Shown here piece by piece: positions 2,184 to 6,373 of a DNA stretch of 6,373 nt. The notes under the pieces were generated by a model that was not told where the DNA came from, did not search any database, and saw only the letters and a list, made by a program, of their open reading frames with translations. Made by a program: the position numbers and the translations under genes. This DNA is from a virus. How positions within the stretch are numbered: position 1 is the stretch's first letter; each line of letters starts with the position of its first letter. Where the stretch lies: the IMG/VR virus record IMGVR_UViG_3300020040_000010, positions 1 through 6,373 of that record; one strand, given 5' to 3'.

Positions 2184-2460
2184 ACTAGAAGCCCATCACG
2201 GCGTTTGAGTGATATACACCTGCCGCCCGCATAGGGCCTGATCGAAAAACGGAGCGGAGCGACTTCTTTATAGAAGCGTTCCGCTTCGGTATTTTAGCAC
2301 GGAGTGCGCAAAGGCAGGTTCTATCTGACCTGCCGTGCCTATACACCTTTGTTTACATTTACTTGTTAATTAAGCGAAGCCCCTAGTTGTGTGCGAAGCA
2401 AATTCGAGTTATCCTCTCGAATTCTCCTCTTTCTTGTCTATAAACGCACAACTCACACTC
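2184..2460 (+). other. Structured non-coding element in the VP2 to lysis-module intergenic region. It may be a complementary-strand origin, a structured ncRNA or a recombination site.
   Basis: There is no ORF of 60 aa or more on either strand, and no ATG on + between 2191 and 2340. My hand count gives 83/150 G+C for 2191-2340 against 13/60 for 2101-2160. At least six hairpins and five short direct repeats are present (coordinates are in the findings). Confidence 0.55.
2250..2296 (+). terminator. Candidate intrinsic terminator: a 16-bp imperfect hairpin (2250-2288) followed by GTATTTTA.
   Basis: 2250-2261 pairs with 2277-2288 (12 bp, including two G-T pairs), A2262 is bulged, and 2263-2266 pairs with 2273-2276 around the loop TTTATA. 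The downstream T-tract is only 4 T, so this may equally be a purely structural hairpin. Confidence 0.3.
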
Positions 2461-2767: not shown

Positions 2768-2840
2768 TAATATTTGGAAAATTATAATTGGCGCTGTTTC
2801 TGCCGCTCTTGGTTACATTCTTAATGCTATTGGATTATGA
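2757..2840 (+). CDS. 27-aa single-transmembrane peptide MKSNNIWKIIIGAVSAALGYILNAIGL, a holin-like or lysis-accessory candidate.
   Basis: It has an ATG start, and its TGA stop overlaps the peptidase ATG (ATGA at 2837-2840). It is the only open frame covering 2768-2836. Its codons follow the genome NNT bias. A polar N-terminus is followed by a 19-residue hydrophobic stretch. It forms the tail of the supplied 2511..2840 ORF. Confidence 0.45.
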   Translation: MKSNNIWKIIIGAVSAALGYILNAIGL

Positions 2841-3145
2841 TTTGTATTCTTATTCATTTTTTGGAGTATTTATTGTTTTTTAATGTCCATTTTACGGTAA
2901 CTAGCGCTCGTCGTACCCCGGAACAGAATAAAGCTTGTAATGGTTCTCCTAATTCGCAACATCTTATTGGAGAAGCTATTGACCTAAAGCCTTATGGTTC
3001 TACTACTTATAATCAGTTGCTTGAATTTATCCATAGATATTCGGATAATATTCATGTATTTGATCAGTTGATATTGTATCCTACATTCATTCACATTTCA
3101 TTTGGTGCTCGTAATCGTCGTCAAGTGATTGATAAACGTAAGTAA
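2837..3145 (+). CDS. Zinc peptidase of the M15 family (Peptidase_M15_3 / VanY-like cell-wall peptidase), a putative endolysin of 102 aa.
   Basis: The motif TSARRTPEQNKACNGSPNSQHLIGEAIDL matches the family signature S-x-R-x(3)-N...G-x(3)-S-x-H-x(2)-G-x-A-x-D, with H42 and D49 forming H-x6-D. The third ligand candidate is H86, in YPTFIHISF. Confidence 0.8.
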   Translation: MICILIHFLEYLLFFNVHFTVTSARRTPEQNKACNGSPNSQHLIGEAIDLKPYGSTTYNQLLEFIHRYSDNIHVFDQLILYPTFIHISFGARNRRQVIDKRK

Positions 3146-3160
3146 TTATAAGTAATTATG
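3141..3160 (+). repeat. Tandem 10-mer AGTAATTATA AGTAATTATG. It spans the peptidase stop codon and the VP4 start codon.
   Basis: Read directly from the sequence. The second unit recurs exactly at 11-20 (= 6263-6272), inside VP1. Confidence 0.9.
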
Positions 3161-4978
3161 AAATATTCTCCTGATTTGCTTAGGGCTGTTGATCATTGTC
3201 AGCATCGTTCATTTATTACGAACAGGTACACTGGTGCCCGTATTGCCGTAGATTGTGGTCAATGCGATTATTGTATCCATAAGCGTGCTAAAAAAGCGTC
3301 TATGCGTGTGAAGACCGCAGGAAGTGCTTTTAAGTATTCTTATTTTGTGACTTTAACGTATGATAATGAACATGTACCCCTATTTAATTGTGAGGTTCTA
3401 GATAGTGCTTATGATGATGCCTTAGGTATCTCAGGAGATCTCCATTTTGGTTATGAAGAACATTCGTTTATTCCGGTATCCGAATATAGTTGCTCAGATC
3501 CAAGTCAATTGCGTCATATTTTCTTTACACAAGTACAGGGTACGGTTCCTTATAACCGTACCTCGTCTCAGTATGAAGCGGTTAAAGATAATTGGTTTCT
3601 TAGTATGGATGCTATCCGCTCCTTTATTAATAAGACGCAAACCTCTTCACCTTACGGTAAAGATGGACTCCTCTCTGATCGATACGGTGATAACCTTATC
3701 CCTTTTTTGAATTATGTTGATGTCCAGAATTATATTAAACGTTTACGTAAACATTTGTTTCAAAAATTAGGCTCTTATGAGACGCTACATTTCTACGCTG
3801 TGGGTGAGTACGGACCCGTACATTTCCGCCCGCATTATCATCTCTTATTATTCACAAACTCGGAGAAGGTCTCCGAGGTTTTACGATACTGTCACGATAA
3901 GAGTTGGAAACTCGGTCGTTCAGATTTCCAACGTTCCGCTGGTGGAGCTTCTTCGTACGTTGCGAGTTACGTTAATAGCCTTAGCGCTGCTCCCCTCTTA
4001 TATCGCTCATGCCGCTCATTTAGACCCAAGTCGCGAGCGTCTGTCGGATTCTTTGAAAAAGGCTGCGATTTCGTGGAAGACGAAGACCCTTATGCGCAAA
4101 TTGAGCAAAAAATCGATTCAGTCGTTAACGGAAGAGTCTATAATTTCAATGGCATCAGTGTTCGGTCAACTCCACCCATGTCGTATATCCGTACCTTATT
4201 GCCCCGATTCTCGTCTGCTCGCAATGACGATGTTGCTGCGATTGCTCGAATTCTTCTTGCTGTGCACCGAACGCCGCAGAGAATTGCAAGATTCGGAATT
4301 ATCCGCTACAAAGATTCGGTCTTGAGTCTTGTTCGTGCTTATTATCAATATCTTAAAGTTCAAAGTATCCTTACAGATGATGATAAAATTATATTACATG
4401 CTTCTAGGTGTCTTACTAGGTTCTGCAACAGTTCTAGTGATGTCGATATTGAATCTTATGTTAATAAGTTATATCGGTTGTTCCTATATGTCTCTAAGTT
4501 CTTCCGTAATTGGCATTTACCTTCCTTTGGTTCTGATGTTAGTGCTTACTCCGGTCGTATTATGTTTATTATTAAAACAGGTATAGAATATGAGAAAAAA
4601 TCGGATTATGTACGAATGTGTGATTCGTTGCGAATACAGCAGACTTTGTCAGCCCCCATGTTTCGGTATTTCTATTTACCAGCCGAAGGATGCGAAATGG
4701 CAACCATTGGTATCGGTGAGGATGGAGAATATGCAGACGGATTTATTCGTCCCGTTAAAGAGCAAATACGAGTACCGTTTGATGACCCCAGAATCCCACC
4801 TCTCGCGACTTGTAATTACTTCAAATGGGCTAAACCCGATACAAGAAGTTCCTATGATAGTGGGCAAAGTAGCGACTTACAGAAATGTCTTGATTTCCGT
4901 GCTGCCACCTTCTGCCGTGACATGATTAAGCATAAGAAATTGAATGATTCTAATAATATATTTAACCGTATGGTTTAA
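3158..4978 (+). CDS. VP4: Replication initiation protein VP4 (phiX174 A-like HUH rolling-circle endonuclease), 606 aa.
   Basis: It carries RCR motif I FVTLTY (aa 63-68, nt 3344-3361) and the HUH motif PHYHLLLF (H226-Y227-H228, nt 3833-3841). The two-tyrosine motif is YVASYVN (Y267 and Y271, nt 3956-3970), which compares with YVAKYVNK in phiX174 A. An N-terminal CGQCDYCIHKR Cys cluster is typical of microvirus VP4. Confidence 0.93.
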   Translation: MKYSPDLLRAVDHCQHRSFITNRYTGARIAVDCGQCDYCIHKRAKKASMRVKTAGSAFKYSYFVTLTYDNEHVPLFNCEVLDSAYDDALGISGDLHFGYEEHSFIPVSEYSCSDPSQLRHIFFTQVQGTVPYNRTSSQYEAVKDNWFLSMDAIRSFINKTQTSSPYGKDGLLSDRYGDNLIPFLNYVDVQNYIKRLRKHLFQKLGSYETLHFYAVGEYGPVHFRPHYHLLLFTNSEKVSEVLRYCHDKSWKLGRSDFQRSAGGASSYVASYVNSLSAAPLLYRSCRSFRPKSRASVGFFEKGCDFVEDEDPYAQIEQKIDSVVNGRVYNFNGISVRSTPPMSYIRTLLPRFSSARNDDVAAIARILLAVHRTPQRIARFGIIRYKDSVLSLVRAYYQYLKVQSILTDDDKIILHASRCLTRFCNSSSDVDIESYVNKLYRLFLYVSKFFRNWHLPSFGSDVSAYSGRIMFIIKTGIEYEKKSDYVRMCDSLRIQQTLSAPMFRYFYLPAEGCEMATIGIGEDGEYADGFIRPVKEQIRVPFDDPRIPPLATCNYFKWAKPDTRSSYDSGQSSDLQKCLDFRAATFCRDMIKHKKLNDSNNIFNRMV

Positions 4979-4994
4979 CTTTAATTAATTAATT

Positions 4995-6373
4995 ATGAGT
5001 AATTTTAATCCTTTGGATAGAGCGAAAATTCCTACCCATCGCTCTTCCTTCGACTTGTCTAGTAAAAAATTGTTTACAGCTAAAGTTGGAGAAATTTTAC
5101 CTTGCTATTGGCAGATTGGTATTCCCGGTAACAAGTATCGTATTTCCTCTGACTGGTTTACCCGTACTGTTCCGGTACATACCGCTGCTTACACCCGTAT
5201 TAAGGAGTATTACGATTTCTACGCTGTGCCGTTACGTCTGATTTCTCGTGCGCTTCCGCAAGCGTTTACTCAGATGACGGACTACATGACTAGCGCTGCT
5301 AGTTCTACTTCGAACGCTACTGCGCTTTCTTCTGTTCCTAATGTTACTCAGAGCTTGTTTAATACTTTTTTTCAGGCGGCTAATTCTCAAGATCAGACTA
5401 ATGTTCGTGATGACGCAGGTCTCCCTATTGTTTATGGTTCTTGTAAGTTGCTTGATCTGCTTGGTTATGGTTCTATGATTGCATCTTCCAATACTGGTAA
5501 GGCTGCTATTACTAAGAAGTATTTAGGTGTTGATAACCTTAGTGATACTGATAATCCTCTGGTTTACCAAACTTCACAAACTGTCAATATTTTGCCTCTG
5601 CTTGCATATCAGAAAATCTATTATGATTTTTATAGTAATTCTCAATGGGAAAAGCATAAAGCCTTCGCTTATAATGTAGACTATTGGCCTGGTACTGGTA
5701 TTGTTCCATTGGTTGCGGATATGGTTCGGCTGCGTTACGCTAATTACCCTAAGGATTATTTTATGGGAATGCTTCCCTCTTCTCAATATGGTTCGGTAGC
5801 TGTTTTGCCTGCGATTGATAGTTCTCTTCTTTCTTCTCAAGTTGGTTTATTCCCCTCACTTAGTTCTACCGTTGTTGGTTCGTCTGTTCAGAATCCTGTT
5901 GGTGGTAGTTCTATTATTTCTTCATCTTCTAATTCTTCCTCTGACCCTCGTTTTGTTCGTCTTAATTCCGACCTCTCTGCCCTCTCGCTTCGTGCTACTG
6001 AATACCTTCAGCGTTGGAAAGAAGTAGTTCAGTTCTCTAGTAAAGATTATTCAGACCAGATGGCTGCGCAGTTTGGTATTAAAGCTCCCGAATATATGGG
6101 AAACCATGCTCATTATATTGGAGGCTGGTCTAGTGTTATTAATATTAATGAAGTCGTTAATACTAATCTTGATACTGATTCTTCTCAGGCTTCTATTGCT
6201 GGTAAGGGTATAAGTTCTAATTCTGGACATACTGTTACTTATGATTGTGGTGCTGAACATCAAGTAATTATGTGTGTTTATCATGCTGTGCCTATGCTGG
6301 ATTGGAATTTAACAGGTCAGGCTCCTCAATTGACCGTGACTGCTATCTCTGACTTCCCCCAACCTGCTTTTGA
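4995..6373 (+). CDS. VP1: Major capsid protein VP1 (F-like), N-terminal 459 codons. It runs off the window end and wraps to 1..497. The full gene is 4995..6252 plus 1..497, giving 584 aa.
   Basis: I translated it by hand and found no in-frame stop: MSNFNPLDRAKIPTHRSSFDLSSKKLFTAKVGEILPCYWQIGIPGNKYRISSDWFTRTVPVHTAAYTRIKEYYDFYAVPLRLI... Later stretches read LLAYQKIYYDFYSN, RYANYPKDYFMGMLPSSQYG and LSLRATEYLQRWKEVVQFS. These match conserved Microviridae VP1 blocks. The ORF is missing from the supplied track because it has no stop in the window. Confidence 0.93.
   Translation, partial: MSNFNPLDRAKIPTHRSSFDLSSKKLFTAKVGEILPCYWQIGIPGNKYRISSDWFTRTVPVHTAAYTRIKEYYDFYAVPLRLISRALPQAFTQMTDYMTSAASSTSNATALSSVPNVTQSLFNTFFQAANSQDQTNVRDDAGLPIVYGSCKLLDLLGYGSMIASSNTGKAAITKKYLGVDNLSDTDNPLVYQTSQTVNILPLLAYQKIYYDFYSNSQWEKHKAFAYNVDYWPGTGIVPLVADMVRLRYANYPKDYFMGMLPSSQYGSVAVLPAIDSSLLSSQVGLFPSLSSTVVGSSVQNPVGGSSIISSSSNSSSDPRFVRLNSDLSALSLRATEYLQRWKEVVQFSSKDYSDQMAAQFGIKAPEYMGNHAHYIGGWSSVININEVVNTNLDTDSSQASIAGKGISSNSGHTVTYDCGAEHQVIMCVYHAVPMLDWNLTGQAPQLTVTAISDFPQPAF
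6253..6373. repeat. Terminal redundancy, right copy (identical to 1..121).
   Basis: Same comparison as for 1..121. Confidence 0.97.

Follow-up and report, generated by a model that had tools for sequence, protein, structure and literature searches.

A conserved, self-folding non-coding island in a microvirus genome as a candidate complementary-strand origin

The island and its conservation

The DNA analysed here (hereafter the window) is a stretch of 6,373 nucleotides, IMG/VR virus record IMGVR_UViG_3300020040_000010. It holds one circular microvirus genome of 6252 nt, positions 1–121 being repeated at 6253–6373. According to the list of open reading frames (ORFs) and to the annotation of relatives, all genes lie on the + strand. 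The major capsid protein gene starts at 4995 and runs across the circle junction to 497, and is followed by a scaffold-like ORF (498–953), the gene of the pilot protein VP2 (950–2065), a small ORF (2573–2767), a peptidase gene (2837–3145) and Rep/VP4 (3158–4978). The subject of this work is a folded island located between VP2 and the small ORF, in the sole large non-coding stretch of the genome (2066–2572, with stops in all three frames). A first-pass annotation had singled out this stretch as the only large intergenic region, and had described in it a GC-rich, ATG-free and densely structured island at 2184–2460. The first point stands, but the spacing of at most 16 nt which it gave for all other genes was inexact: a 69-nt gap (2768–2836) separates the small ORF from the peptidase gene, and annotated relatives have this gap too.

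A recount gave the same base composition as before, with 83 G or C out of 150 positions (55%) in 2191–2340, compared with 27 out of 118 (23%) in the upstream flank 2066–2183 and 40% in the genome. The + strand proved free of ATG from 2066 up to 2461 (one follows at 2462), whereas about four would be expected in 2184–2460. This is not a conserved trait, since relatives hold from zero to five ATGs in the island, mostly one or two.

A BLAST search against GenBank phages retrieved 34 relatives, microviruses sampled from lemurs, dogs and humans, in which the segment from 2172/2182 to 2580 is kept at 70–89%. In some relatives the island starts directly after the VP2 stop. Searching IMG/VR with a 30-nt island pattern gave 107 microvirus contigs of about 6 kb. 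To avoid circularity, relatives were also chosen by their Rep protein (80 loci, 67–86% amino-acid identity), and all 80 loci carry the island, on the Rep strand. For this set the identical fraction was 0.87 in both island halves, 0.51 to 0.84 in genes, and 0.08 in the AT-rich flank 2066–2172. The conserved block therefore begins around 2173, somewhat upstream of the limit first given. Among all 20-mers of a 70-genome whole-genome alignment, the most conserved was 2373–2392. The island is confirmed as a real non-coding element and as the best-conserved part of the genome.

Elsewhere in the genome, conservation peaks were seen inside the Rep gene at 3791–3975 and 4179–4198, with runs of 12–14 nt at 95% or more (3912–3925, 4181–4192). 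They probably reflect catalytic motifs, although a cis-acting site inside Rep, as in phiX174, is conceivable. A hidden protein gene in the island was also considered, namely a 53-amino-acid ORF on the − strand (2185–2346). It was rejected, because indels of a single nucleotide occur in the alignments and the lengths of the islands are spread evenly over the three classes modulo 3.

An Rfam scan of 1950–2700 at E ≤ 10 returned three chance-level matches (14.6–16.6 bits, versus gathering scores of 36–110), in keeping with the initial statement that the island resembles no known RNA family, and no tRNA or tmRNA was detected. The element is undescribed in Rfam and in the searchable literature.

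Acquired host DNA or a recombination site had been put forward as one origin of the island. A site of the attP or dif type, used for XerCD integration, has a precedent in the dif-like att sites reported by Krupovic and Forterre at the ends of Bacteroidetes microvirus proviruses, at a position corresponding to this intergenic region (PMC3091885). However, the dif consensus had no match in the window with up to 3 mismatches, and its relaxed core had none within 2173–2469. A survey of 185,579 species-representative bacterial genomes revealed 0 matches to the island pattern and no Rep relatives or proviruses, and no integrated copy with junctions inside the island was found. Four long IMG/VR contigs were examined as possible proviruses (L021, L063, L143 and L149, 7.7–9.4 kb). 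They break at varied points inside VP1, not at the island, and look like assembly chimeras. An attachment site, or captured host DNA, is thus a highly improbable explanation.

Covarying folds in two modules

Folding of the island was compared with that of dinucleotide shuffles, and gave z = −4.8 for the + strand and −3.7 for the − strand with RNA parameters, and −3.8 and −3.2, respectively, with DNA parameters. Pairing was then assessed on alignment A2, which consists of 114 distinct homologous islands and is the basis of all pair counts given below for clade 1. In a model of 12 helices, 94.9% of cells were paired, and 24 pairs had changed on both sides, in 313 cells. Control helices, obtained by sliding, gave 5–12 such pairs and 11–86 cells, and none of 500 shuffles reached the observed values. 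The intra-strand folds are real, as proven by covariation. In the supported helices G.T combinations were more numerous than A.C (286 versus 85), which designates the + strand as the folding strand. In all Microviridae studied so far, the + (gene-sense) strand is the packaged one.

All the helix arms quoted in the first-pass annotation were recovered at their positions, and related genomes keep the segment, with compensatory changes in stems. Helices H1, H2 and H5 each have such changes. H3, H4 and H6 needed amendment, as described below, and one pairing, 2218–2224 with 2313–2319, suggested as the basis of an alternative fold, is not conserved: its central pair 2221:2316 is unpaired in 105 of the 114 islands.

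Module D2 (2364–2460), searched for with covariance model R1, is the core element. It was detected in every relative examined, with the exception of clade 2, for which it was confirmed in at least 59 of 67 genomes. It comprises a closing helix (H6), a GAA-capped mini-hairpin and the hairpin H5, with an extra mini-hairpin just upstream. This upstream mini-hairpin 1, GCGAAGC (2374–2380), is followed by CC and then by CTA (2383–2385). Its stem covaries, a G:C pair being replaced by A:U in locus L017 and in distant relatives, while clade 2 has G:C in 46 and A:U in 20 cases. Read off the alignment, a CTA lies 0–3 nt 3′ of mini-hairpin 1 in the window and in seven of the nine distant relatives introduced below.

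H6 had been drawn around H5 at 2390–2395 and 2445–2450. A closing helix does exist there, but the register was off by two, the true helix being 2385–2392:2446–2453. It is 99.9% paired, with three covarying pairs in clade 1, and six of its eight pairs covary in the distant sets. Within it lie mini-hairpin 2, H5 and, on the 3′ side, an unpaired linker. Mini-hairpin 2, again GCGAAGC (2393–2399), is stacked on H6. Its outer pair 2393:2399 is G:C in 64 islands, C:G in 35 and A:U in 8. As to the loop, about 90 of the 114 islands have a GAA or GGA triloop and about 16 a GNNA tetraloop. H5 is a perfect 8-bp hairpin (2401–2423) in which the loop TTATCNT and the top pairs GAG/CTC are conserved. Seven of its eight pairs covary in clade 1, all eight in the distant set and six in clade 2, and the loop is clade-specific (GTTATCC versus TTTACCTC). 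The linker (2424–2445) is unpaired and pyrimidine-rich, and contains CTTGTC (2433–2438), which is near-invariant and kept in both clades.

How far D2 extends was determined by starting from Rep. In a tblastn search, 34 records had a Rep of at least 60% identity, the same number as have the island, and none came next above about 40%. Nine relatives beyond this gap, with 24–35% identity over most of Rep, formed the distant set. They share the gene order, and have 0.4–1 kb of unannotated sequence after the pilot gene. Structure-free nhmmer profiles found neither D1, the second module of the island, nor D2 in these relatives. The D2 covariance model gave full-length + strand matches in all nine, each in the post-pilot non-coding region, with scores from 51 down to 15.5 bits (E ≤ 0.005 for seven of them). 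In these matches, as aligned by the model, 97.4% of cells pair and 17 of 20 pairs have changed on both sides. For clade 2, the Rep of Dulem virus 257 was used to select 67 further genomes; in the D2 copies of this clade all cells pair and 16 of 20 pairs have changed on both sides. Searches with the model gave no match in phiX174 or G4 (under 9 bits), nor in the gokushoviruses phiMH2K and Chp2. Common to both clades are the two GNA-capped mini-hairpins, H5, CTTGTC, the closing helix and a tail reading (G)TGACAC or CTCACAC.

It is possible, though we hold it with more doubt than confidence, that D2 represents an undescribed, lineage-wide class of self-folding single-stranded DNA (ssDNA) origin in gut microviruses of the Bacteroidota type, characterised by a three-way junction studded with hyperstable GNA mini-hairpins and, in many genomes, by DNA pseudoknots. 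Such an origin would exclude the host single-stranded DNA-binding protein (SSB) and recruit a host priming enzyme or Rep by its structure, and not by homology in sequence with any known origin. As a variant, the pseudoknotted array formed by D1 and D2 could conceivably be a new class of structured RNA.

Module D1 (2173–2347; identical fraction 0.87 among the relatives chosen by Rep) is an accessory array of hairpins and pseudoknots. With separate nhmmer profiles for D1 (2173–2347) and D2 (2364–2469), both modules were found in 177 of 184 related loci. L161 (1964–2064), L170 (2901–3011), L176 (4159–4264) and L178 have D2 without D1, and L168 (3748–3856) retains only the H3 part of D1. In the D1-less genomes a canonical intrinsic terminator, made of a long GC hairpin and a T-run, is present instead, followed by TTCCGAAAGTA(T)CG, D2, an A-run and a promoter. 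The TTCCGAAAGTA(T)CG found after the replacement terminators is conserved, and is another mini-hairpin motif, C-GAAA-G. D1 is dispensable, a few natural genomes having an ordinary terminator in its place.

Two interleaved pairings, absent from the first-pass annotation, were detected in D1. The first (2188–2213) combines stem A, 2188–2193:2200–2205, with H1, 2195–2199:2209–2213. H1 is 100% paired, pair 2198:2210 being G:C in 96 islands, A:U in 12 and C:G in one. Support for stem A is moderate: pair 2189:2204 is A:U in 79 islands and G:C in 15, and a majority have an A.G mismatch at 2190:2203. The second (2221–2237) combines 2221–2223:2229–2231 with H2, 2225–2228:2234–2237. Here 2221:2231 is C:G in 105, U:A in 6 and G:C in 3 islands, and 2228:2234 is C:G in 110 and U:A in 4, so that both are 100% paired. 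The interleaved pairings at H1 and H2 form either small pseudoknots or alternative states.

Directly 3′ of H1 lies the box TATACACC (2213–2220), which is repeated at 2340–2347, 3′ of the long hairpin described below. In Dulem virus 257 (L188, 3480–3510; 26% Rep identity) a GCGTAGC-capped hairpin is directly followed by TATACACC, as are H1 and TATACACC in 2195–2220; this is the only D1-like feature of primary sequence seen at that distance. We considered whether TATACACC might be a universal Rep nick site, and rejected it, as L161, L168 and L170 have no ATACACC anywhere in the genome.

H3 (2250–2295) is a long hairpin, 2250–2288 with a bulged A2262, followed by TATTTT (2290–2295). The long form proposed at first is 91% paired, but most of its changes involve G.U, and it competes with a short form, 2273–2278:2282–2287, which is flagged as terminator-like despite a T-run of just 4 T and in which pair 2274:2286 is G:C in 71 islands and A:U in 38. 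Both forms fit the alignment data. A mini-hairpin GCGGAGC (2254–2260) lies within H3. In L168, H3 is followed by TATTTTTTG, and in one subgroup the H3 hairpin is missing and two GCGAAGC motifs are found instead. H3 is probably the intrinsic terminator of the late capsid/pilot operon, because canonical terminators replace D1 in D1-less genomes and because of the arrangement of H3 and TATTTTTTG in L168.

H4 was conceived as GCAC (2297–2300) pairing with 2335–2338 on top of an inner stem. The inner stem covaries and forms a long hairpin (2313–2334; 2313–2320:2327–2334), with four pairs changed on both sides and two sequence versions, GGCAGGTT.../...GACCTGCC and GGCAAGACAG/CTGCCTTGCC. The outer stem is compatible with the alignment but has no change on both sides. 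GCAC pairs locally instead, with 2304–2307, in a mini-hairpin GCAC-GGA-GTGC (2297–2307) which has changed on both sides in 27 sequences (2299:2305 is A:U in 87 and G:C in 27, 100% paired).

The two modules are joined by a variable linker (2348–2363; A2 columns about 190–335), a hot spot with insertions of 0–90 nt. At least 15 genomes have in it a palindromic cassette of about 33 nt, CCCTAGATCTATTAGTAATGGATCTAGGAC. In the L067 linker, a 24-nt unit is present three times in tandem; it contains AGTCCAGGACTT, a sequence similar to the CAGGACT at the 5′ edge of the island (2181–2187).

Genomic setting, mini-hairpin motifs and proposed function

Downstream of the fold, and outside it, are an A-run (2474–2481) and a Bacteroidota-type promoter motif consisting of TTTG (2491–2494), 19 nt, and TATATTTG (2514–2521). 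Its position suggests that it serves the early/Rep gene block and marks the start of the corresponding transcription unit, and its type suggests a Bacteroidota host. The motif (TTTG, 17–23 nt, T(A)nnTTTG) was found 60–79 nt 3′ of D2 in 121 of 129 clade-1 regions, and about 90 nt 3′ of D2 in 57 of 63 clade-2 regions. Upstream of the island or within it, such a host-type motif is present in just 4–5 of the 129 clade-1 regions. On the other side, a hairpin with a T-run precedes D2 in 48 of 63 clade-2 genomes, and terminators precede it in D1-less clade-1 genomes as well. As promoters follow D2 and terminator-like hairpins precede it, D2 sits in a spacer between terminator and promoter, which would be poorly transcribed. 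Further downstream, directly 5′ of the small ORF start, an AT-rich block (2541–2575, TTATTAACATTTTAAAAT..ACAATTATG) is nearly invariant, also in those genomes whose promoter region differs. It could serve in translation initiation or as a leader signal.

All three + strand GCGNAGC copies of the genome are located within the island. The motif was also taken more generally, as a GNA or GNNA loop closed by C-G on a stem of 2 bp or more. Its density in 120 genomes was 10.9 per kb on the + strand of the island, about 10-fold higher than elsewhere on that strand (1.05 per kb) or on the − strand of the island (1.03 per kb). Similarly, the non-coding part after the pilot gene makes up 11.8% of the nine distant genomes but holds 38 of their 93 + strand motifs (p = 1e-12), compared with 8 of 95 motifs on the − strand. 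The stems of the mini-hairpins covary while the loops stay GNA. Mini-hairpin DNA of this type is extraordinarily stable as DNA and far weaker as RNA, is poorly bound by SSB, and is frequent at the replication initiation sites of phages G4, St-1 and alpha3; it also occurs in RSF1010 ssiA and in the N4 hairpin promoters (Hirao review, PMC13037366). The position of D2 and the loop type both point to DNA, rather than RNA, as the folded molecule.

An element acting as RNA could form a structured 3′ untranslated end on the capsid/pilot mRNA, providing termination and protection from exonucleases, or could be a novel pseudoknotted non-coding RNA. The island has the same sense as all genes and is hence transcribed at least up to H3, where the hairpin and T-tract are terminator-like and, in D1-less genomes, replaced by ordinary terminators. 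Two pseudoknots and G.U-tolerant helices are typical of RNA, the folding z-score was strongest with RNA parameters, and the intergenic hairpins of phiX174 act as mRNA stabilisers. However, in both clades the core D2 comes after the terminator and before the next promoter, and the H3 hairpin is missing altogether in one subgroup. No conserved promoter was found for an independent transcript: the promoter-like motif at 2078–2111, on which the first-pass annotation had founded its non-coding RNA proposal, falls in the non-conserved flank, so that only its hairpin and T-tract at 2250–2296 keep their meaning, as a terminator-like signal. In addition, no Rfam match beyond chance level was obtained at E ≤ 10, and the dominant triloop, C-GAA-G, combines exceptional stability in DNA with weakness in RNA (PMC13037366). 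An RNA role is for these reasons doubtful.

The same data bear on a protein-binding control region, for instance an operator of the early promoter or an element upstream of it, which would act in the duplex replicative form, the helices being by-products of inverted-repeat binding sites. D2 ends about 60–90 nt upstream of the conserved promoter and many unpaired segments are invariant, which would fit such a region. Yet compensatory changes in H6, whose partners are about 55 nt apart, and in mini-hairpin stems of 2 bp would not be expected of it, the motif enrichment is strand-specific, and G.T is tolerated more than A.C. We consider it improbable.

We tentatively favour, at less than even confidence, a cis-acting role of the island through the fold of the single-stranded viral + DNA, as a single-strand initiation signal (complementary-strand, or minus, origin). 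The first-pass annotation had listed such an origin, by analogy with phiX174 and G4. Of its three proposals it is the best supported, by the covarying folds, the position between terminator and promoter and the + strand motifs, but the analogy does not extend to homology with the phiX174 or G4 origins. Upon entry, the + strand would be coated by host SSB. The three-way fold of D2 (H6, H5 and the GAA-capped mini-hairpin), the upstream mini-hairpin, and the hairpins and pseudoknots of D1 would resist SSB and remain exposed as a landmark. Primase, a PriA-type primosome or RNA polymerase of the host would then start a primer on adjacent unpaired conserved sequence, the candidate starts being CTA (2383–2385) or the linker near CTTGTC (2433–2438), and host enzymes would turn the injected ssDNA into the double-stranded replicative form. 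We infer both the priming activity and its start nucleotides. D1 would have an accessory, enhancing role, and its H3 hairpin would in addition end the late (capsid/pilot) transcript. The dispensability of D1 would fit redundant or auxiliary priming signals. For other small microviruses, hairpins have been predicted and a hairpin has been supposed, though not demonstrated, to be needed for minus-strand synthesis (PMC9865509).

Several points weigh against a complementary-strand origin. Identical helices would arise in an RNA of the same sense, and read-through of the terminator could transcribe D2. No similarity in sequence or model was found between the island and the G4 or phiX174 origins, and we know of no small pseudoknots among the features of ssDNA priming signals. 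The pairing percentages of the distant D2 alignments are inflated, as these were fitted to the model, even though pair-type variety and slid controls remain far apart. Likewise, the motif enrichment test sets non-coding against coding sequence, and only the comparison with the − strand controls for this. Finally, deep conservation in the phiX174 group is a property of the plus-strand (Rep) origin, whereas minus origins differ between phiX174 and G4; by that analogy an element conserved down to about 25% Rep identity, as D2 is, could be the Rep origin instead.

In that case D2 would be a plus-strand rolling-circle origin, at which Rep/VP4 recognises H5 and nicks the unpaired linker, for example within CTTGTC (2433–2438). 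The nick would begin and complete the synthesis of the viral strand, in the manner of relaxases and other HUH enzymes, whose cut falls at a single-stranded site close to the hairpin they bind. D2 occurs throughout the lineage and no sequence of the genome is better conserved, and the plus origin of the phiX174 group is similarly invariant. The H5 loop and top pairs are kept within a clade and differ between clades, as co-evolution with Rep predicts, and CTTGTC, which the fold leaves single-stranded, is conserved in both clades. Moreover, no phiX174-type 30-nt origin (CAACTTG/ATATTAATAAC...) was detected above chance anywhere in the genome, the best match being 18–19 of 30 for a shuffled mean of 18.3. 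On the other hand, the long-range H6 and the multi-branch fold would be hard to extrude from the duplex replicative form, and a strand-specific surplus of SSB-resistant mini-hairpins is known from ssDNA priming and initiation signals but not from sites nicked by Rep. In the CTTG register, just 13 of 30 positions agree between D2 and the phiX174 origin, and the phiX174 origin lies within gene A, not in a spacer. We judge a plus-strand origin unlikely.

In mammalian guts, few phages are more abundant than microviruses of this type, but to our knowledge hardly any have been cultured and no replication signal of theirs is known. The element offers a concrete candidate origin for Bacteroidota which can be searched for with a model, and a non-coding marker by which microvirus genomes can be recognised and oriented in metagenomes. 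Any synthetic or resurrected microvirus genome would need it. As far as we know, mini-hairpin DNA motifs were hitherto known from a handful of coliphage and plasmid origins; here is a natural case in which they are under selection, with covarying stems, across deep divergence.

Comparison with known initiation signals

A complementary-strand origin at the island would have its closest counterpart in that of G4, St-1 and alpha3. Both are non-coding segments of a microvirus + strand, holding an array of stable hairpins maintained by base-pairing, and an SSB-resistant structure is presumed in both. In both, a mini-hairpin (GCGNAGC/GCGNNAGC) stands beside an unpaired C-T-purine trinucleotide: G4 has GCGAAAGC at 3977 and CTG, the annotated primer start, at 3996–3998, while the window has GCGAAGC at 2374 and CTA at 2383. 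The sole GCGAAAGC of G4 falls within the annotated primer site of its complementary-strand origin. The two differ in that homology is not detectable, local alignment being no better than with shuffles and the D2 model scoring under 9 bits, and in location, the island following the pilot gene and the G4 origin lying between F and G. Hairpins are mostly 3′ of the candidate start in the island and 5′ of it in G4, and only the island has a long-range closing helix and the pseudoknots of D1. The host of the island is presumably a member of the Bacteroidota, and its function is that of a candidate.

The primosome assembly site of phiX174, a PriA/n′ hairpin in the F–G intergenic region, is likewise a hairpin-containing non-coding part of the viral strand, and the F–G spacer has a GCGAAGC at 2358. 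With this site the island shares only a 9-mer, AAGCGAAGC, which is not significant (176 of 1000 shuffles score as well). Homology to the G4 or phiX174 origins was accordingly rejected, the shared 9-mers being at chance level only.

RSF1010 ssiA and the promoters of the N4 virion RNA polymerase consist of short hairpins with GNA triloops of the CCGAAGG or GCGGAGC type, and the same loop types occur at all four sites of the island. GNA-triloop hairpins are used by polymerases and primases on single-stranded or extruded DNA (PMC13037366). Unlike the island, these systems need dedicated enzymes (RepB′, N4 vRNAP), which this 6-kb genome does not encode, and they rely on a single hairpin, where the island has a three-way fold.

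Intrinsic terminators and the mRNA-stabilising hairpins of phiX174 are comparable to H3 with its TATTTT, directly after the last late gene. However, H3 covers only about 45 of some 290 conserved nucleotides, its T-tract has 4 T, and the hairpin is missing in a subgroup. By analogy, the element as a whole would act like a known kind of signal, the hairpin array of an ssDNA phage origin, while lying outside the G4 and phiX174 origin families by sequence or model.

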